64,000 bases of DNA from Naegleria gruberi (lineage: Eukaryota). The stretch lies in assembly GCA_000004985.1 (NCBI GenBank), contig GG738899.1, one strand, 5' to 3'. The translations under genes were made by a program, and so were the position numbers. Below the pieces are notes generated by a model. The model saw only the letters and a list, made by a program, of their open reading frames with translations. It was not told where the DNA came from and did no database searches. Positions 23,956-63,836 of this stretch are shown in pieces (position 1 is the first letter of the stretch; each line of letters begins with the position of its first letter).

Positions 23956-24204
23956 TTTTTCAAGAATAGTTTTTGAATTTTATGGAGATACCAGTAGTAC
24001 ATAAAACGTTATGCAAAACAGTATATTGAGGTTATCGCTGGAATAGTATATGAGTTGAATCAATTTTATTAAAGAGATGGAAGTGAATCTTCCTATTTGG
24101 TCAAGTAATCAATTCCTTATTGTCCAAATTCAAATCTTGATTTCTATTGATGATAACCTTCCGTCAACCTTCATATTGATGTTTCACATTTTGTGATACT
24201 GAAT

Positions 24205-24322
24205 GACTACGGCCATATCACGATGAATGCACCTCATCCCGTCCGATTTGAGAAGTTAAGCATCGTCGAGCTACATCAGTACTGAGGTTGGAGACAACTT
24301 GGGAACCTGTGGTGCTGTAGTC
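24205..24322 (+). rRNA. 5S rRNA gene, copy 1 (118 nt), followed by a T6 Pol III terminator.
   Basis: GACTACGGCCATATCACGATGAATGCACCTCATCCCGTCCGATTTGAGAAGTTAAGCATCGTCGAGCTACATCAGTACTGAGGTTGGAGACAACTTGGGAACCTGTGGTGCTGTAGTC. Helix I pairs the 5' and 3' ends. There are two substitutions relative to copies 2 and 3. Confidence 0.9.
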
Positions 24323-24357
24323 TTTTTTATTTTCAAAATTTTGCTCATATTATGAAA

Positions 24358-33414: not shown

Positions 33415-36400
33415 TTACATGGTTGAAGTACTAGTAGCAGGCTTCAATCCTTCACCAACATATCTAATGGCATGCTTATTTTGTGAAATGGCAATACGAA
33501 CAGTCTCCTTATTGATAAATCTTTCAGCAAGTCTTCTCAATACAAGTCCATTTGTAGAGACAGCAACCTTTACCATATCTTCACTGATACGGTTGGCATG
33601 TCTGATGAGGAATGGATTCTTCTTGATAATAGGGGTCATGAATTCAATGTCAGATCTGAGGAATCTTGAAGCATAACGAATGGAATTCACACATTGATTA
33701 GTGGCAACGGCAACGAGTTCCTTATCAAAGGTATATTCATTTGGAAGATAGTCCAACAATCTACCATTCTTCTTGAGAGCTAATTCGCACAATTCTCGGT
33801 TAATCTTGTTAGATTTCAAGAATTGAATGCAATTTCCATATCTCTTGACAGACTCTCTAACAAATTCATCATCATTTCTCAAAGATTCGTCCAAAAATTC
33901 GAATGATTTACCATTACTTGTCTTGAGTGAAATCTTGGCAATTTCCAAATCCTTCTTCAATTCTGATGGAGCAAACTTGACAGCCAATCCACAATTTTTT
34001 ACAGCATCCAAAACAATTTGCTTGGTGTTTTGCAAATCAGCAGAGGCAAACTTTAAGGCACGACCATTTACTGAAACTGCCTTTTGAACAATTTCGTAAT
34101 CACTTCTGAATGGAATTGCCAAATATTCCAAGGCAAGACCATTAATGGCAATTGCTAATAGTGCAAATTCTCTGTCTTGTTTGAGGGTTTCACTGGCATG
34201 TTTGAGGGATTTTCTATTCTTCTTGAAACAATCGAGGACAAACTTGGAATCACTCTTCAAATCATCAGAGGCGAGTTTGAGGATAGTAGCTCTGTGATTG
34301 ATTGCTTCCTTGATGTGAGAGGTGTCGAAGGATTGGTCAACCTTTTTTGGATTCTTACGAGCAAGTGAGAGTTTGACATCTGAATCTTGTTGTAATTCCT
34401 TAGAAAGATAAACGAATGATTTTCCACTTTGATTGAGAGCTACCAAAGCAACTTGTTTGTTATTTCTCATATCTTCAGATGCAAATCTAATGGCAGATCC
34501 ATTTTGCTTGACAGCTGCCAAAACAACACTCAAATTATTCTTCAAATCATTGGAAGCATAATCCAACAACAAACCATCCTTCTTGACAACTTTCAAGGTA
34601 ACTTGTTCATTGTTTTGCATTTCCTTAGAAATGAATTTGTAAGCGTCCTTACTGCTCTCAATAGCTCTCTCAACAATTTCCAAATCTTCCTTAAGATGTT
34701 CATTGAGATATTTGATAGAGTCTCCATTATTGGCAACTGCCTTCAATGCAAATTCTCTTTCATTTCTCAAATCGAGAGGTAAATATTGAAGAATTTCAAC
34801 ACCCTTATGATTCAAAGCAGCGTTAGCAATTTCCTTATCAATAATAGTACTACAGGCATATCTGATAGCAGTAGAGTCACATTCAACAGCATATTTTGTG
34901 AATTCCTTATCTTCCCACAAATCAATTGAGACATATTTCAAACTGTCATAGCTTTCCTTGACAGCAACTCTGGCATATTCCTTGTAATCCTTGGAATTTT
35001 CGTCCAAATATTTGAGTGAAGCTCCTTCATAGTACAAGGAAGCAAGAACAACATCTCTGTCACTTAACAAACTCTCGTGAACGTATCTGATGGCGCTTCT
35101 GTCAGTTTTCATAGCTGCCAATGCAATTTCCTTATCCTTGAGAATTTCCTCATCAAATACATATTGTAAACTGGAGCCATATTCTTGAATAGCTGTCATG
35201 ACAATTTCTCTATCTTTCTTAATATTTTCTGGAAGATATTCCAAAAGACATCCTTCAATTCTTACTAATTTCAGTAAAGCTTGTTTGTCATGTCTCAATG
35301 GATGATCAGGAAGTTTGGCCAAAACCAAAGGTTGCTTTACAAGAGCTTCACTAATAAATTCAGGATCATTTCTGAATTTTTCTGGAACATACTTGATATT
35401 ATCTCTATTTTCAATCACAGCTCTGAGGCAGAGTTCTCTATCATTCATAATATCATCGTGACTGATAAAGTATTCTAAACCACATGAAGGCAAGGCAATC
35501 TTGACAAGTTTTGGATCATTTCTCAATTCGAAAGGAATATAATTAATGGAATACTTGCTGGACTGAATGGCAGTCATGTAAACATCTCTTTGTAAGGCAA
35601 GATGAAGTGGTGCATACTTGATTAAATCTCCACTCTTTCTAATGGCAGTCATGAGAATTTCCTTATCATTCAATAATTCAACTGGAAGATATTCGTAGAC
35701 GTTTGGTTCCTTTTCAATAATTCTCATAACAAATTCTCTATCTCTTTGGAGTTCAGCACTGGCATATCTGAATGCTGTATAATAATTCTCCACAGCTGTT
35801 GTGACAATATATCGATCATTGGTGAATTTGGAACCAGCAAAGAGAAGTGCACCTCCACTGCATCTCACAGCTTCCAATACAATTTCATAATCTTCTCTCA
35901 ATTCAAGAGCAGCAAATGCAAGAGCATCACCATTTTCTTGAACTGCAATTTTGACAATTTCTCTGTCAGCTTTGAGTTCTTCACTGGCATATTCTAAACA
36001 TCTTCCATCAAGATATACTGCAAACTTTACAAAATCTCTATTAGAAAGAAATTCTGGATCAACAATGGCATCAATAGATCTTTCCTTGACAGCTGTCATT
36101 ACAACTTGAAGATTGCTTGCAAATTCCTTGCAGGCATGTTCAAAAACGTAACTGCTGTCTCTAACACAAATCTTGACAAGCTCTGCATCTGAAAGATGAG
36201 TTTCATCATCAATATATCTCAAAATAGATCCATCCATTTTCAATGCCTTCTTAACAATTTCTCTATCAGATTGCAACTCTGATGGGAAGTAACGAATGTA
36301 ACTGCACTTTAAGGCATTCATGTAAATCTCAGCGTCATTCTTGAAATGTTCACACTCCTGTAAGACACTTCCATTGTTCTTGATGAGTCTCTTGATGAAA

Positions 36401-38745
36401 TCTCTGTCACTCAATAATTCCTCTGAGAGAATCTTTGGTTCAACGGCAATTCCATGATCGAGTAATTTGGTCATGAATTCTCTGTCTTCTCCTAATTTTG
36501 TATCAATATCGTTGAATCCATACTGATTGGTAAGGAGTGAGAGTAGAGCAATTTCTCTATCTCCCTTAAACTTTGGCAAATCTTCAATGTTTCCACCATT
36601 AAATTGACAAACTGTTTTGGCAAATTCTCTGTCGCTTCTGAGTCTTTCAGAAGCAAATTTGAGAGAATTATAATTGCCCTTACCTGACCAGAGAACAATC
36701 TTTTCATCATCTTTTTGTTGCTTGGTAACATATTCAAGAACTCTTCCATCATTTTCCAATGCAACCATTACAAGAGAAATGTCTTTTTTCAATTCATCAC
36801 TGGCATGAGCAAATGCTCTACCATCCATTCTAATTGCAGTTGAGACAATTTCTCTATCATTCTTGAGTTCTTTAGAGGTATACTCCAAAGCATCTCCTGA
36901 TTTCATTACTGCTCTCAACACGACCCCTCTGTCATTCTTGAGGTCACTCGAAGCATACTCCAATGCTGAGCCATTTTCAGAGACTGCCATCAGGACAATT
37001 TCCTTATCGTTTTTGAGCTCAGCAGAGGCAAATTCAAGTTCTCTACCGTTATTCTTGACCAATTCCATAACAATCTCTCTGTCATTCTTCATTTCATCAT
37101 TCAAATATTCCAGGATAGAGCCCCATCTTGAGAAGCTAGATTTGAGTTTGATTATTTGCAAACATAAATCTCTATCATTCTTGATATTATCTGAAACATA
37201 TTGTAAAGCATTAGTGTTCGAAGAGAGGGCAAGCTTTACAATTTCAAAATCATCTTTCAATTCATCAGAAGCATAAGCAAGAGCTGAACCATCTTGTCTG
37301 ACAGCTTGTTTGACAATCTCTCTGTCAGATTTAACTTCTTCTGGGGCAAATTCCAAAGCAGAACCACGAACCTTGATAGCAGCCTTAACAATTTCAATAT
37401 TTTCTTTGATTTCATCAGAGGCATACTCTAAAACTGAGCCATTCTTTCTGAGTGCCTTCTTGACAATTTCAATATTATTCTTGATATCATCTGAGAGATA
37501 GCTGAGAGCTCTTGGATCTTCTTCGAGGGCAATTAATGCAATTTCCTCATCATTCTTCAAATTATCTGAAGCATATTCAACAATACGACCATTCTTTCTA
37601 ACAGCCATTTTGACAATTTCTCTATCATCTTTCAAGGAATCATCAACGTATTCCAATACATCTGCATTAATCTTGATAGCTTGTTTCACAAACTCTCTAT
37701 CTTGTTTCAATTCATCAGAAACATATCCACATGCTCTGGCATTACTAGAAATGGCAGCAAGGGCAATTTCCTGATCAGATTTAAACTCATCCACAACATA
37801 TTCCATCACATATCCATCTGATTTGACAGCTTTCAACACCAAATCTCTATCACTTTGCAATTCTTCTGGTATTTCCCTTAAATCACTTCCATTTACCAGT
37901 AAAACAGCTTCAACCACTTCACGATCCTGTTTCAATTCATCAGATAAATCGCTCACTAATGAACCGAAAAAGAATGAACATCCTTCTTCCTTTACACCTT
38001 TCAAAACCTTCAAACAAAGATCCTTTTCAGTTCTGAACTTTGGATGAGCATGTGAAAAAACAGTTCCATTATATGACTTGGCAATTGCACTAATCACAAT
38101 ATCAATGTCAGCTTTCAATTCTTCTGGACAAAATTCAAGTGCAGAGCCACTCTTATCCAAAGCTATGAGTGCCAATTCTTTATCTTCTCTCAATTCTTCT
38201 GATGCAAATTGGAAAGCATCTCCATCATTCTGAACTGCAATTTTCACAATTTCATAATCAGCTTTCAATTCATCAGATAAATATTCCAAATTAGAACCAG
38301 CATCTTCAAGAACAATTAGTGCAATTTCTCTGTCGTTTTTCAATTCGTCTGATGCATATTTGATGGATGATTTATCTTCTTTAATGGCCAATAGAACTAA
38401 TTCTTTATCATTTCGTAAAGAATCGGATGCATTTTCTAATAAATTGCCTCGTTTAGGGAGAGCTTTCAAAAACACTAGTTTACAATCATTGTCTGGGAAT
38501 GGATTTTCTGTTAAAAAATCGTCAACGGCAAAGTAATCATCATCAATTCGTCCAAAAGCTTCGAATAATTGTTCCAAATGTTCGAAAGCTTGTTTCTGAC
38601 GATTAACAACTTGATTACGTAAATAGATTCGATGATTTAACAGAATGGAATATGCAGAATTATTGTTGCCATCACATGAATGATCATAGCTTGATCCTCC
38701 ATTAGCGTTCAATGTGACAATTCTAGCATCTTCAAAGTTTGACAT
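33415..38745 (-). CDS. Giant intronless repeat protein (1776 aa). About 45 tandem ~36-38-aa repeats of DUF4116 type.
   Basis: Repeat consensus: …(D/N)(R/K)E(I/V)(V/A)L.AV..(N/D)G.AL.YAS.(E/D)LK.D… repeated across almost the whole ORF (DREIALIVLEDAGSNLEYLSDELKADYEIVKIAVQNDGDAFQFASEELREDKELALIALDKSGSALEFCPEELK…). DNA-level repeats have diverged. Flanked by the two tRNA genes. Confidence 0.8.
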   Translation of the reverse strand: MSNFEDARIVTLNANGGSSYDHSCDGNNNSAYSILLNHRIYLRNQVVNRQKQAFEHLEQLFEAFGRIDDDYFAVDDFLTENPFPDNDCKLVFLKALPKRGNLLENASDSLRNDKELVLLAIKEDKSSIKYASDELKNDREIALIVLEDAGSNLEYLSDELKADYEIVKIAVQNDGDAFQFASEELREDKELALIALDKSGSALEFCPEELKADIDIVISAIAKSYNGTVFSHAHPKFRTEKDLCLKVLKGVKEEGCSFFFGSLVSDLSDELKQDREVVEAVLLVNGSDLREIPEELQSDRDLVLKAVKSDGYVMEYVVDEFKSDQEIALAAISSNARACGYVSDELKQDREFVKQAIKINADVLEYVDDSLKDDREIVKMAVRKNGRIVEYASDNLKNDEEIALIALEEDPRALSYLSDDIKNNIEIVKKALRKNGSVLEYASDEIKENIEIVKAAIKVRGSALEFAPEEVKSDREIVKQAVRQDGSALAYASDELKDDFEIVKLALSSNTNALQYVSDNIKNDRDLCLQIIKLKSSFSRWGSILEYLNDEMKNDREIVMELVKNNGRELEFASAELKNDKEIVLMAVSENGSALEYASSDLKNDRGVVLRAVMKSGDALEYTSKELKNDREIVSTAIRMDGRAFAHASDELKKDISLVMVALENDGRVLEYVTKQQKDDEKIVLWSGKGNYNSLKFASERLRSDREFAKTVCQFNGGNIEDLPKFKGDREIALLSLLTNQYGFNDIDTKLGEDREFMTKLLDHGIAVEPKILSEELLSDRDFIKRLIKNNGSVLQECEHFKNDAEIYMNALKCSYIRYFPSELQSDREIVKKALKMDGSILRYIDDETHLSDAELVKICVRDSSYVFEHACKEFASNLQVVMTAVKERSIDAIVDPEFLSNRDFVKFAVYLDGRCLEYASEELKADREIVKIAVQENGDALAFAALELREDYEIVLEAVRCSGGALLFAGSKFTNDRYIVTTAVENYYTAFRYASAELQRDREFVMRIIEKEPNVYEYLPVELLNDKEILMTAIRKSGDLIKYAPLHLALQRDVYMTAIQSSKYSINYIPFELRNDPKLVKIALPSCGLEYFISHDDIMNDRELCLRAVIENRDNIKYVPEKFRNDPEFISEALVKQPLVLAKLPDHPLRHDKQALLKLVRIEGCLLEYLPENIKKDREIVMTAIQEYGSSLQYVFDEEILKDKEIALAAMKTDRSAIRYVHESLLSDRDVVLASLYYEGASLKYLDENSKDYKEYARVAVKESYDSLKYVSIDLWEDKEFTKYAVECDSTAIRYACSTIIDKEIANAALNHKGVEILQYLPLDLRNEREFALKAVANNGDSIKYLNEHLKEDLEIVERAIESSKDAYKFISKEMQNNEQVTLKVVKKDGLLLDYASNDLKNNLSVVLAAVKQNGSAIRFASEDMRNNKQVALVALNQSGKSFVYLSKELQQDSDVKLSLARKNPKKVDQSFDTSHIKEAINHRATILKLASDDLKSDSKFVLDCFKKNRKSLKHASETLKQDREFALLAIAINGLALEYLAIPFRSDYEIVQKAVSVNGRALKFASADLQNTKQIVLDAVKNCGLAVKFAPSELKKDLEIAKISLKTSNGKSFEFLDESLRNDDEFVRESVKRYGNCIQFLKSNKINRELCELALKKNGRLLDYLPNEYTFDKELVAVATNQCVNSIRYASRFLRSDIEFMTPIIKKNPFLIRHANRISEDMVKVAVSTNGLVLRRLAERFINKETVRIAISQNKHAIRYVGEGLKPATSTSTM

Positions 38746-39064: not shown

Positions 39065-39441
39065 ATCACATAGAAATGGGTCAAAGGATTAAATTCTTAC
39101 TATTCACCTCAGACCACAAAGTAGGTATACCGTAGGTACCCACACTTTAATATTCTTTGAAATTTTATGGTGCATATTTATCTTGAAACATTGAAACAGA
39201 GCTATCATTGCAATTTGATTCCAGAAATGTTTAAGGTGTTACTCATGATAATGTGCTTAAATTTTGGTACGATTGTAGCCCCTTACAATAAATCTTCTAT
39301 TTTTAAAGGTCATGACATAAGGGTGAACTTTGCGCCATAAAACAAGATAAAACACGCCAAGATCTTGCTGAGACAAAATTTCAACAACAAAAAAACAAAT
39401 TAATTGATAATAATCATAATTATAATAATAATAATTAGAAA

Positions 39442-59586: not shown

Positions 59587-60096
59587 TTACAAGACATACA
59601 TGCAAATGATTGTATAAATACCCAAACTAACAGTACTCAATAATCCCCAAAACCAAACCAATGTTCTCCAAGGTTGTAAATTGAACCAATACATGAAAAA
59701 GTAGACCATTCTGGAAAGGGTAAAGCTTGCCATCAGAATATTCCCCACAATGGCATTCCACAAGGAATATTGAGGATCAGTAGTTGAGTTATAGCTCATT
59801 GTTGAGACAATAACATATGGAATTGCAATCATGATGAATGGCAAAACATTTTCAATATCATTTCTGTGAATGTTGCCAGCTAATTCAGCACGAGAGGCCC
59901 ATGAGGAAGGTTTCTGATCTTCGAGAGAGGAATCACTATTGTTAACTCCTTGCTTTTGTTTCTTTTTGGTGGCCATGGTATCAATCATTTTAGAAACACC
60001 TGTAATTTGAGCAGCAATGAATACACGAAACATTAGGAGAAAGACGTTATAGACGAATCCTTGAAGGACAGCATTGTAGAGAATGAGTGGTTGCAT
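59587..60096 (-). CDS. MAPEG family / microsomal glutathione S-transferase (MGST1-like), 169 aa.
   Basis: RAELAGNIHRNDIENVLPFIMIAIPY…PQYSLWNAIVGNILMASFTLSRMVYFFMY aligns with the MGST1 core (ERVRRAHLNDLENIxPF…). Four TM helices. Confidence 0.8.
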   Translation of the reverse strand: MQPLILYNAVLQGFVYNVFLLMFRVFIAAQITGVSKMIDTMATKKKQKQGVNNSDSSLEDQKPSSWASRAELAGNIHRNDIENVLPFIMIAIPYVIVSTMSYNSTTDPQYSLWNAIVGNILMASFTLSRMVYFFMYWFNLQPWRTLVWFWGLLSTVSLGIYTIICMYVL

Positions 60097-60455
60097 TTTG
60101 TTTGTTCTTTCACACCAGACTGTCTCGTTGAGCTATTTGAACTGTTTTGAATAAGTGTCAGCAAAAACAACATACATCCTCCCGCCCGTAGATCTTTAAA
60201 TGGAGGCGGGGTCTTTATTGAATTAGTGCGGCCAATAAGAACGTCCACAGTTCTGAGAACTATGCCTATTGGTATTTGTAACAATGTGCATTTCCTTTAT
60301 GAAGATGATGTTAATTTGTTTGAATGAGCAATCTTTAAAAAACCCACTCCAATTAATAATACAAAGCACTGCTCAAGAGTGTAGCATATCGATATGCTTC
60401 ACATGGTACTAACAGAATTGATCAAGTTGATATCTGGCATTTTATGATAATAGAT

Positions 60456-60573
60456 GGCTACGGCCATATCACGATGAATGCACCTCATCCCGTCCGATTT
60501 GAGAAGTTAAGCATCGTCGAGCCACATCAGTACTGAGGTTGGAGACAACTTGGGAACCTGTGGTGCTGTAGTC
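60456..60573 (+). rRNA. 5S rRNA gene, copy 2 (118 nt), followed by a T5 terminator.
   Basis: GGCTACGGCCATATCACGATGAATGCACCTCATCCCGTCCGATTTGAGAAGTTAAGCATCGTCGAGCCACATCAGTACTGAGGTTGGAGACAACTTGGGAACCTGTGGTGCTGTAGTC. Upstream element TTTTATGATAATAGAT|GG. Confidence 0.9.
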
Positions 60574-61188
60574 TTTTTAATTTCGATTTAATTTATGTGT
60601 TGTTATCTTATTGTTTTTACAACTTTAAATATTGAAATGTAGAGATATTGAAAATGGAAATGTACAAATATGTGAAGAAAATTAAATACAAATCATTTGA
60701 CAATTTAAAGAACTTTATTGAAAAACTTGTAAAATTCAATCTTATCCAAATTGTTTGGGTTGTTGTTTACTATTAGGGAGACTCTTTTAACTGCTGTGGA
60801 TTCACATTACTGCAAATACTTGGTTACAATCAGGGATTACCTCACTCTACATTAATTATCAACCCTCTCGCCACTCTTTCTAGAACGATTTGATTGGACA
60901 AGAGGGCTCAATGAATCTATTAATATACTCGACTGAAGATTCATTGTAGTAGGTTTCTTTTTTTTTAATTGAACAAGAGACAATTTTCACATTCAAGCCA
61001 GCTCACTTTCTATTTATATTTTAGGAAATGCCACTTTCAACTTTTGAAGCAAACATTCATGAATGTAATTTTCATTTGATCAACAAGTTCATAGGAAGGA
61101 TCAATATCAGTTATATCTGTCTTTGTAAAAGAATAAGGAAGTATATTAATTGTACAATGTTCTATTTATTTTTATTTTTATAATGAAT

Positions 61189-61240
61189 GGCTACGGCCAT
61201 AGCAAGATGAAAGCACATCATCTCAATTAGGAACCTATCT
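61189..61240 (+). pseudogene. Internally deleted 5S rRNA-derived copy (about 52 nt), with the upstream promoter-like element and T-run retained.
   Basis: GGCTACGGCCATAGCAAGATGAAAGCACATCATC…TCAATTAGGAACCTATCTTTTTG is 5S positions 1 to about 35 fused to the 3' terminus. About 65 nt including the internal A/C-box region are missing. Upstream is TTTTTATAATGAAT|GG. Confidence 0.6.
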
Positions 61241-61857
61241 TTTTGCCTTATTGATTTTTCAACCTGGGTAAGTTGGCCTAGTTGTCCACTTCCATTTCAC
61301 AGATTATTATAGTATTTGTGCAAAGAATGAGGAAATTCTCCACTTTATTAGTTGTTTCTTACAACTTTCAGGAGGAAGTTCTTAAAAATTGTGAGCTGAT
61401 CTTGAAGCCATGATGGAAATTGCTCTTCCACCTCAATAATTAATCAAGTCAACATTCAATTATTTTCTTGAATCGAAATTTATATTTTTCACACATAAAA
61501 GTACCACAATTTTTTAACCTCACTTTTCACACATTCAAAACCAATATCATAAACCTCACAAATCAAACTTGATAAAGCCATTGACTGTACTTCTACAGGA
61601 TCTTTTCTGTAGGAATACATAAACTCGACTTTTTTGAGTCAATCTGACCTTTGAGGTTAACCAAGATGAAGACTCTGTAGTCACATATCTTGAGCATGAT
61701 ATCGAACTGGAAACATGCTTCGCTGTAGGTTTCCTCGTTCATAGATGATTGCTGCATTCCTTACCAGCCATGGTTTGTGAATGGGGGATTTGTGAACATG
61801 CAGATTGGTACCTTAATTTTTTTAATAATTAATAGAAACTTAAACAATTTCAACGTC

Positions 61858-61899
61858 CTATGGCAGCATTTCAAGTTCTAGGAACCTATGTTTCTTTTG
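61858..61899 (+). pseudogene. Second, more diverged 5S-derived fragment sharing the same deletion junction.
   Basis: CTATGGCAGCATTTCAAGTTCTAGGAACCTATGTTTCTTTTG shares the CTAyGGC…AGCA…TAGGAACCTAT-TTTCTTTTG junction with the 61189 copy, where the intact gene reads GGGAACCTGTGGTGCTGTAGTC. Same orientation. Confidence 0.4.
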
Positions 61900-62738
61900 T
61901 TGCTTTGCACTTATCAACCAAGATCTATTTGGAACTTTCTTTGCATTAATAGGTACAAAGTGAAAGTCGCCTTAAAAAACTGACTAATAACATCATAAAA
62001 TTAGATTTAGAACAGACAATTACTGAAATTGTAAAACATTGAAAGTTTAATGATTGTTTGTAGGGTTGTATGCAACATTTCTTCTCCAGTATGAACGTTT
62101 CCTCTCAACCAAATATTTGGAGAATGAAACACAATGACCTTGTTTTACATGATGTTCAAAATCATTGTCACTAATTACTTCATAAACATTTTCTTTACAA
62201 ACAGCACAAAACGAAACTCCGTACGAAACCTCAATAAATTGTCTAAGGGAAATGAAAGAGTTCTTCACTATCTTGGCCAACAGATTGAAAAAACTCCCAA
62301 ACTTTAATTGAAACTTCCATTTCAGAGTTGGCTCTATTTTTAAAGAAAGAATTATACCATAATGAAATGAATGTTTTCAACAATCTGAAGCTAAGAGAGA
62401 TTGCAAACCAATACTGATTTTGAGGCATGTGTAATTCTAACATCACTATCAGCTCGTATTCTACCACTAAACCATCGACGCTTCTTATTAGTCTATCAAA
62501 TATTATAATAATAGATAGTGTGATTTAATAAACTGTCATCAATGAAGTGTTGGTGGCGAAACTCCACCCATGCCTTTTTTACCTCCTGTTAAAATTACAT
62601 TAAGAATTTGAATGGAACATCATAAGTTTTATCTGGTTCAAAACCATCAATTTTCGAATGGTGTTTTAGTACTCACTCACAAATTAAACTATAACAAATT
62701 AAGAGATAGCTCATTATCTTAATTTTGATATTAACAAT

Positions 62739-62856
62739 GGCTACGGCCATATCACGATGAATGCACCTCATCCCGTCCGATTTGAGAAGGTAAGCATCGT
62801 CGAGCCACATCAGTACTGAGGTTGGAGACAACTTGGGAACCTGTGGTGCTGTAGTC
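62739..62856 (+). rRNA. 5S rRNA gene, copy 3 (118 nt), followed by a T5 terminator.
   Basis: Identical to copy 2 except one substitution (GAGAAGgTAAGC). Upstream element TTTTGATATTAACAAT|GG. Confidence 0.9.
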
Positions 62857-62892
62857 TTTTTAATTCAAAATATCAAAGTAAAATGAAATTTT

Positions 62893-63836
62893 TTATTTTA
62901 AATATAAATTGGATGTATTAAATAAACATTTACAATTTAATTCTAATTTATCAAATTTATATTGTTCAAGTACAGTGGTATCAAATTGTAATTCTTGTAA
63001 AATCAAACATTCAACAGTTAATTCATTTAAATTTAAAGGAATATTTAATTTTTTTAAATCATATTCAATAATTGTTAATTTTTTTAAATTACATAAATTA
63101 TTTAAATTAACTATTGTAGTTCCTAATTCTTCTAAATGTAATATTTCTAAATTAATCATATTATTTATAATATTAATTTCAGTTAAATAACATCCAGTTA
63201 AAGATAATTCAGTTAAATTTAATTTTGAAATTGCATTTAAAAAATTAAAATAATTTAATTGTTCTAATTCTGATTTAAATATTAAACTTTTTAAATTATT
63301 TAAATGAATAATACCTTCACCATTTAATTCTGTATCTGTAAATGATAATTTTGTTAATTTGGTTAAATATTTTAAATTAATTTCATTTTCAATTTCATTA
63401 CAATATAATTCTTTTAAATTATTTAATTTAGATAATAGAATAATATCCAATTCATTTAAATTAATTGATAAATGTAAAATTGATAAATTATTTAAATTAT
63501 TTAAATATGGTAATACTAAAATGTTTAAATAATAGAAGAAACCCTTAACATACCTTTTATATCACCTTTTAATTCATATATAGAATTAATGTAATTATTA
63601 TTTTCACAAAATTTAATAAAACTATTAATGTATTTAAATCTGCTATTATATTTGATATTAATAATTGATTTGTAATTTAATTTATTACAAATAATAACAT
63701 TCCATTCTTTTGATATTATTCTTAAATATTTACAACAATATTCAAAGGTAAAATATTTAAATAAATGTTCTATCAATATTTCCGATGGAATGTTCGGTGA
63801 GGAGGAATAATTAATCATATGAACTGAGGATGACAT
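62893..63836 (-). CDS. F-box / leucine-rich-repeat protein, 301 aa, extremely AT-rich. Exons 63554-63836 and 62893-63515, intron about 63516-63553.
   Basis: Exon 1 is MSSSVHMINYSSSPNIPSEILIEHLFKYF…, an F-box-like N-terminus. A 38-nt intron (GTATGT…TTTTAG, phase 1) joins to an LRR body (…LNNLNNLSILHLSINLNELDIILLSKLNNLKELYCNEIENEINLKYLTKL…LNLTELSLTGC…). Total is 302 codons. Coding GC is about 15-20% with nearly all third positions A/T, unlike every other gene in the window. Confidence 0.6.

Follow-up and report, generated by a model that had tools for sequence, protein, structure and literature searches.

Two 5S rRNA genes, an internally deleted 5S copy and a U3 snoRNA gene in an intergenic stretch of Naegleria gruberi

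The region from 60.1 to 62.9 kb of the Naegleria gruberi sequence considered here (contig GG738899.1 of assembly GCA_000004985.1) is most probably an intergenic island of small-RNA genes, 2.8 kb long and free of protein genes, in which two working genes for 5S ribosomal RNA (rRNA) are accompanied by a dead, internally deleted 5S copy, called T1, and by a gene for the U3 small nucleolar RNA (snoRNA). The island lies in a window of 64,000 nucleotides (nt), which is the whole stretch of DNA that was analysed and corresponds to scaffold_55:192004-256003 on the + strand (window position + 192003); its G+C content is 33.6% and its open reading frames (ORFs) are long and uninterrupted. An earlier note on this DNA had seen four 5S-related elements on the same strand at intervals of roughly 670-880 bp, namely two intact genes flanking two truncated copies. 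The two intact genes and the first truncated copy, T1, stand; the second, called T2, is undetectable as 5S, and the periodicity is lost with it. The locus can be regarded as unremarkable within a dispersed 5S family that is already known, and it additionally contains a pseudogene not yet catalogued and a U3 gene that had been missed. The features on which this description draws are given below.

60416-60455 (+): flank preceding 5S gene A; contains the TATA-like motif ATTTTATGATA (60439-60449)
60456-60574 (+): intact, full-length 5S rRNA gene A, 105.4 bits against RF00001; scaffold_55:252459 in Table S1 of PMC3369914
60574-60578 (+): T5 run, terminator of gene A
61148-61188 (+): sequence preceding T1, homologous to that preceding the intact genes, with TTATTTTTATAATGAAT just before +1
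61189-61244 (+): T1, internally deleted 5S pseudogene, made of 5S positions 1-36, then CAATTAGGAACCTAT, then C and a T5 run (61240-61244)
61581-61809 (+): full-length U3 snoRNA gene, 76.1 bits against RF00012 (gathering score 34), E=8e-15, model positions 1-219
61860-61898 (+): T2, claimed second truncated copy, 50 nt downstream of U3, sharing TAGGAACCTAT(g)TTT and a weak collinear similarity with T1
62739-62857 (+): intact 5S rRNA gene B, 102.1 bits against RF00001; scaffold_55:254742 in Table S1 of PMC3369914
62857-62861 (+): T5 run, terminator of gene B
24205-24323 (+): third intact 5S rRNA gene, standing alone 36 kb from the island, 103.5 bits against RF00001; scaffold_55:216208 in Table S1 of PMC3369914

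The intact 5S rRNA genes

At its gathering thresholds (a score of 38 for RF00001, the 5S rRNA family), Rfam identifies three full-length 5S rRNA genes, two transfer RNA (tRNA) genes and one U3 snoRNA gene in the whole window. The starts of the 5S genes at 24205, 60456 and 62739 coincide, after addition of 192003, exactly with three scaffold_55 entries of Table S1 in PMC3369914, and all three are already catalogued there. The catalogue counts 279 putative 5S genes dispersed over 117 scaffolds of N. gruberi and describes for them a TATA box, an internal control region and T-run terminators, and TFIIIA is reported as not found in this organism (PMC3369914).

Only three positions vary among the three intact genes of the window. 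Gene B differs from gene A solely by T52G, which falls inside the conserved, box A-like segment AGTTAAGC and disrupts one base pair in the Rfam alignment, and the gene at 24205 carries C68T together with G2A, by which a G-U pair becomes an A-U pair. Box A is located at about +50-64 and box C at about +80-99 of the intact gene. In alignments, T1 and the remaining 5S copies have upstream flanks similar to that of gene A, and a motif ATTTT(R)TGATA, which ends about 7-9 nt before +1, is common to the 5S genes (60439-60449, 24188-24198 and 62723-62735); in the two closest copies it is preceded by TTGATNT about 10 nt farther upstream. The ATTTT(R)TGATA motif probably corresponds to the TATA-like promoter element reported by PMC3369914. 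Each of the two intact genes of the island has a TATA-like element, an internal control region and a T5 terminator, and both are presumably functional and transcribed by RNA polymerase III (Pol III). A faint 5S-head-like stretch (GGCTACAATCGTACCAAAATTTAAGCACATTATC) is also present beside a tRNA-Arg gene at 39247-39288 (-), with a non-significant nhmmer match (E=89).

T1 as an internally deleted 5S copy

By its sequence, T1 is a real internally deleted 5S copy. It is identical to 5S positions 1-36 at 31 of 36 sites (30 of 34 in a pairwise alignment with the 5S 5' end), and the similarity reaches beyond the gene into its upstream flank, with 61175-61222 aligning to the 5S gene plus flank in blastn (word 7, E=2e-8) and 61177-61224 doing so in nhmmer (E=3e-9). 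Self-BLAST pairs 61148-61222 with 60416-60489 at 73% over 75 columns and also aligns 61166-61222 with 62714-62772. For the 40 nt upstream of T1, the summed similarity to the three intact flanks exceeds that of AT-matched random 40-mers (P=0.007); the TATA-like motif in this flank (61172-61188) has drifted to TTTTTATAAT, its TGATA having become TTATA.

Past 5S position 36, the sequence CAA-TTAGGAACCT matches the 14 nt of 5S 91-104 and is followed by C and the T5 run. The tail as a whole, CAATTAGGAACCTAT, is similar to 5S 91-106. Taken alone, the match to 5S 91-104 is weak (P 0.09-0.14 against random window segments); the combination of a tail match with a T5 run within 15 nt occurs in 15 of 11839 random window 40-mers (0.13%), giving a P of about 0.001 for a criterion that was set after the data had been seen. 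What is missing from T1 is approximately 5S 36-90 and 107-117, about 66 nt in total, and the deletion takes out box A, IE and half of box C, which are parts of the internal control region, as well as the 3' strand of helix I. The matches of head, flank and tail thus bear out the earlier description of T1 as a copy without about 65 nt including the internal promoter. It had further been proposed that the truncated units keep the upstream promoter motif and the terminator, which is true of T1 with its flank of about 40 nt and its T5 run and fails for T2, in which a T5 run is absent.

T1 (at about scaffold_55:253192) is absent from Table S1 of PMC3369914. An Rfam scan of 60300-63000 at E<=10 added only noise and returned no 5S match for T1 or T2. 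The predicted fold of the 56-nt T1 RNA is no better than that of shuffled sequence (z=-1.56) and the fold of T2 is worse than its shuffles, and a structured RNA from either was rejected on this basis. A 5S gene split by an insertion was considered for T1 and rejected, as blastn and nhmmer find no 3' remainder of a 5S gene nearby. T1 is best read, on its sequence, as a non-functional pseudogene. Since its homology extends upstream of +1, the sequence points to an origin by DNA-level duplication rather than by retroposition.

A U3 snoRNA gene between the 5S genes

The full-length U3 gene sits between T1 and T2 and was overlooked in the earlier note. Its alignment to the family contains matches to box A (CAGGA-UCUUUUCUGUAG), box C' (GAUGAAGA), box B (AGCAUGA) and box C (AGAUGAU), and box D reads CAGA instead of CUGA. 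A T6 run is found inside the gene at 61630-61635 and a T7 run at 61817-61823, 8 nt beyond the 3' end. The gene begins 1007 nt after 5S gene A and ends 930 nt before gene B.

The intervals between paired 5S genes, as computed from Table S1 of PMC3369914, cover about 0.2% of the genome, and the chance of finding U3 inside such a pair under random placement is roughly estimated at 0.2-0.5%, a value that was obtained post hoc for a single locus. Linkage of U3 to other small stable-RNA genes has precedents among the Discoba, with U3-U5 and U3-tRNA linkage in Euglena and tRNA-U3 linkage in trypanosomatids (PMC2784804). The case described here differs from these in being a linkage of position in which U3 has 5S rRNA genes as its partners, co-oriented with it and about 1 kb away. 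U3 is reported to be transcribed by Pol III in trypanosomatids, other protists and plants; the trypanosomatid genes require a divergently oriented tRNA gene situated 93-105 bp upstream of them (PMC2784804). A companion of the trypanosomatid kind was looked for and rejected, with no tRNA-like element upstream of U3 in the Rfam scan of 60300-63000 at E<=10.

Spacing of the 5S genes and the question of an array

Genes A and B share 144 nt at 94% identity, comprising the gene with 17 nt upstream and 8 nt downstream (repeat search). Self-BLAST of 60100-62900, the repeat search and an alignment of the copies with 100-nt flanks agree that only the gene, 25-40 nt upstream and 8 nt downstream are repeated and that the spacers are unrelated. 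Nothing further rises above chance in the self-BLAST, and Tandem Repeats Finder reports short AT-rich runs only. The supported elements start at 60456, 61189 and 62739, which leaves intervals of 733 and 1550 nt without a period, and the longer of the two contains the U3 gene. A comparison of the region with itself, which had been suggested as a check for spacer periodicity, accordingly yields none. A tandem 5S rDNA array is rejected on these grounds, with spacers that are not homologous, an irregular period and no array found by Tandem Repeats Finder. Of the decaying tandem array that the earlier note had put forward as one reading, the decayed local 5S duplicate remains in the form of T1; the array itself does not, as the spacers are unrelated and a U3 gene fills part of the supposed spacer. 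The arrangement is scored as "tandem" in PMC3369914, but with unrelated spacers the locus is a loose 5S cluster, with the pair 2283 nt apart, and not an array.

Such a cluster is in keeping with the rest of the genome. Table S1 of PMC3369914 gives 162 within-scaffold neighbour distances, 38 of them below 6 kb, 29 below 4 kb and 22 below 3 kb, where random placement in 41 Mb would give about 6-7 below 6 kb. It also lists 15 partial entries (80-106 nt, the shortest of any entry being 80 nt), three of which lie within 5 kb of an intact gene. The 2283-nt distance between genes A and B is one of the 38 below 6 kb, and both loosely paired 5S genes (1.5-4 kb apart) and incomplete copies are thus normal in this genome.

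A search of metagenomes for the Naegleria-type 5S head, with a pattern loose enough to admit the changes in T1, returned three loci, all from other eukaryotes and including a tRNA cluster with 5S and a tight 5S array; scans of prokaryote-genome and viral collections gave no match. One of the metagenome loci is a dense tRNA cluster with one 5S gene (L002). Another, at 572-1160 of contig Ga0075463_10066925 (L004), holds three head-to-tail 5S genes with spacers of 61 and 179 nt, a true tight array from an unrelated eukaryote.

The segment at 61858 and the shared junction

T2 had been described as a second truncated 5S copy, likewise without about 65 nt, and this description is not upheld. T2 has no 5S match by blastn (word 7, E<=50), nhmmer with --max (E<=100) or Rfam (E<=10), and 19% of segments drawn at random from the window match 5S locally at least as well as the best stretch of T2. 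The part of T2 that should be a 5S head is unrecognisable, although the head of T1 is 86% conserved. What the two segments do have in common is the exact 11-mer TAGGAACCTAT, which is found in the window at 61228 (T1) and 61879 (T2) only and extends to a match of 14/15. The same 2.8 kb contains two further 15-nt pairs with 14/15 matches that carry no meaning (D9 and D10 of the repeat search). An exact 11-mer containing G or C is shared with a same-strand site within 1.5 kb by 4.7% of 60-nt segments outside repetitive ORFs and by 8.4% of those window-wide. The key argument of the earlier note, the common junction, is an 11-mer match that is expected by chance about once in 12-20 tries in such AT-rich sequence.

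The collinear alignment of T1 with T2 (61172-61257 with 61817-61906) has 62% identity over 92 columns and a self-BLAST E of 0.17, which is level with unrelated pairs, comes from a self-comparison of 2.8 kb and is too favourable a figure where the DNA is AT-rich. Of 2156 window tiles, 1-2 attain the gapped T1-T2 score, a frequency that amounts to about 0.03-0.07 when some 50-100 tiles of the cluster are allowed for. Under 1/-1/-2/-1 scoring, the unrelated site 19663 (-) outscores T2 against T1, and the T1 and T2 flanks tested without the core give P values from 0.03 to 0.8. Homology of T1 and T2 is statistically borderline on sequence comparison, with P of about 0.03-0.17 depending on the test.

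The weak downstream similarity that had been reported for the two segments is collinear as far as TCAACC, at the chance level of the alignment given above, and one of its motifs is a recurrent 9-mer. This 9-mer, TTATCAACC, is present at 1317, 5039 (-), 21565, 51836 (-), 60856 and 61911, six occurrences where 0.77 are expected and a count that 0 of 100 shuffles reach. Two of the sites are in the 5S/U3 island, one of them being the "downstream similarity" of T2, and the excess may be a codon or composition effect.

The proposal that an identical junction implies a single deletion and a subsequent duplication of the truncated unit rests wholly on the homology of T2. The 11-mer is indeed shared exactly; with a borderline homology, the proposal is possible but unproven. 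The resemblance of T2 is due to chance, or else T2 is a relic that has decayed beyond proof, and in both cases it is no recognisable 5S element; that it is a genuine relic of a T1-like unit is conceivable and rather doubtful. Insertion of the U3 segment between the 15-nt direct repeats at 61228 and 61879, read as a target-site duplication, was rejected because equal chance repeats exist (D9, D10).

Origin of the locus and rival explanations

The features of the island would be explained by a short series of steps. Its 5S genes belong to the dispersed family of about 279 copies, which often form loose pairs 1.5-4 kb apart with unrelated spacers, and similarity would be maintained, by selection and/or gene conversion, no farther than the gene and some 25-40 nt of flank. 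T1 would have arisen by a local duplication, at the DNA level, of a 5S gene with its upstream flank, with the later loss of about 55 nt from its interior and of 11 nt close to the 3' end. The U3 gene would be independent of the 5S genes that flank it.

T1 fits a dispersed 5S family with truncated pseudogenes, given its clear partial homology and the missing parts of structure and internal promoter. In filamentous fungi, truncated 5S copies are mostly truncated at an end. T1, from another lineage, is an internal-deletion copy that keeps both ends. According to the account of Rooney and Ward (2005) summarised in PMC5555474, dispersed 5S families in filamentous fungi as a rule contain truncated 5S pseudogenes; as far as that summary describes them, these birth-and-death families resemble the present one in being dispersed with many defective members, and in having truncated copies that, like T1, cannot form the 5S structure. 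The closest comparison is the N. gruberi catalogue itself, in which the three intact genes are entries, loose pairs recur and partial copies occur elsewhere; T1 is unlisted in it, and the U3 gene and the contents of the pair spacers are not described there (PMC3369914).

Three other explanations have to be weighed against this one. In a fuller version of local decay, the internal deletion occurred once and a local duplication of the truncated unit followed, from which T1 and T2 descend; T2 has since decayed further or lost its 5' end. This course of events is possible and on balance doubtful. T1 and T2 lie on the same strand, 651 nt apart, and share an 11-mer that occurs nowhere else in the 64 kb; their weak similarity is collinear from an AT-rich upstream part to TCAACC downstream, and a gapped alignment of CATCATCTCAA..TAGGAACCTATCTTT with CAGCATTTCAAGTTCTAGGAACCTATGTTT covers both junctions of T1 and attains the score that just 1-2 of the 2156 tiles reach. 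The same data contain the counter-arguments: the E value is at the level of unrelated pairs and optimistic, the pairs D9 and D10 are as good, such sharing of an 11-mer with a site nearby is seen in 5-8% of comparable segments, an unrelated site beats T2 under one scoring scheme, and the flanks alone are inconsistent. T2 itself has neither 5S homology of its own nor a T5 run. Moreover, the 27-nt 5S head that is 86% conserved in T1 is unrecognisable in T2 next to a tail that is 93% identical, which would be odd for uniform neutral decay. The second explanation treats T1, with or without T2, as a small 5S-derived mobile or Pol III-transcribed element, either akin to a short interspersed element (SINE) or a mini-gene, driven by the upstream TATA-like motif and producing an RNA of about 53 nt. 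SINEs derived from 5S are known, for example SINE3 of zebrafish and those of some mammals, and consist of a head with the 5S internal promoter (boxes A, IE and C), a body, and a tail that is related to a long interspersed element (LINE) or made of simple repeats; they have target-site duplications at their flanks and many copies. T1 is like them in being 5S-related sequence outside a normal gene with a T-run at its end, and it keeps a flank of about 40 nt resembling that of the active genes, the +1 region and the T5 run. Upstream elements may also matter more where TFIIIA is not found (PMC3369914). In the points compared here T1 departs from such elements: the internal promoter is gone (box A, IE and half of box C), it is followed by TTTTTGCCTTATTGATT and by no A-rich, simple-repeat or LINE-like tail, no k-mer of at least 8 nt is shared by its two flanks as a target-site duplication (the T2 flanks share one AT-rich 8-mer only), and no further copy of the unit or of its junction occurs within the 64-kb window. 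Its TATA-like motif has drifted, its predicted RNA is no stabler than shuffled sequence, and Table S1 of PMC3369914 has no entries of about 50-60 nt. The SINE-like alternative of the earlier note, for which target-site duplications had been proposed as a check, is thus rejected on these points, and an element of either kind is very improbable.

The third explanation makes the succession of 5S gene, relic, U3 gene and 5S gene a functional module, in which Pol III-bound 5S genes would support or insulate the expression of U3 by analogy with the tRNA-U3 arrangement of trypanosomatids. The position of U3 1007 nt after one 5S gene and 930 nt before the next, the small share of the genome (about 0.2%) occupied by 5S-pair intervals, which makes random placement unlikely, the Pol III transcription of U3 in trypanosomatids, other protists and plants together with its tRNA dependence in the first of these (PMC2784804), and the T7 run after the 3' end of U3 are all consistent with such a module. 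By contrast, distances of about 1 kb are far greater than the 93-105 bp of trypanosomatids, the 5S genes are co-oriented and not divergent, and no tRNA-like element precedes U3 at E<=10. The internal T6 run of U3 should stop Pol III, because the 5S genes here end at T5, and this argues against transcription of U3 by this polymerase. As the locus is a single one and its probability was estimated after the fact, a module of this kind is judged unlikely.

An ordinary, loosely paired member of the dispersed 5S family that happens to enclose a pseudogene and a U3 gene is hence the preferred reading, and four points weigh against it. The placement of U3 hints at a non-random linkage with 5S for which the reading does not account. 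The similarity of T1 and T2 is borderline and not clearly null. That the intact genes work and that T1 is silent is deduced from sequence. Finally, T1 may be transcribed from its upstream sequence, a possibility left by its promoter-like flank, its T5 run and the report that TFIIIA is not found (PMC3369914).

Coding context and neighbouring sequences

The island is free of protein genes as far as can be judged from its ORFs, with none longer than 83 amino acids (aa) within 60100-62890. A 77-aa ORF in the spacer at 62047-62280 (-) was considered as a protein gene and rejected, having only sub-threshold Pfam (zinc-finger) matches and no homologue among 5.8 billion proteins.

The island is adjoined at 59587-60096 (-) by a MAPEG gene (microsomal glutathione S-transferase-like), whose product is 100% identical to a predicted N. 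gruberi protein. An 88%-identical paralogue of this gene is located on another N. gruberi scaffold (P0002) and suggests a segmental duplication. On its other side, at 62893-63836 (-), there is a leucine-rich-repeat-like ORF pair, broken at 63451-63524 by an intron or a frameshift and with no Pfam match above the cut-off, whose G+C content of 13-25%, against 34% for the window, makes its composition sharply unlike that of its neighbours. Farther away, an uninterrupted ORF of 1776 aa at 33415-38745 (-) is built almost wholly of DUF4116 repeats, with 36 matched stretches and a score of 1257 bits.

Implications

The importance of these results lies mainly in annotation, as what appeared to be a four-element cluster resolves into two catalogued 5S genes, one unlisted pseudogene and one unannotated U3 gene. 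The position of U3 within a 5S pair is a lead and not a finding. Loose 5S pairs in Naegleria could recurrently enclose genes for small nucleolar or other stable RNAs as co-regulated or co-amplified islands, with 5S relics like T1 perhaps being transcribed into RNAs of about 53 nt; this is a speculative idea that we consider quite unlikely. If the U3-in-5S-pair arrangement does recur genome-wide, it would be informative on the organisation of small-RNA genes in a heterolobosean.

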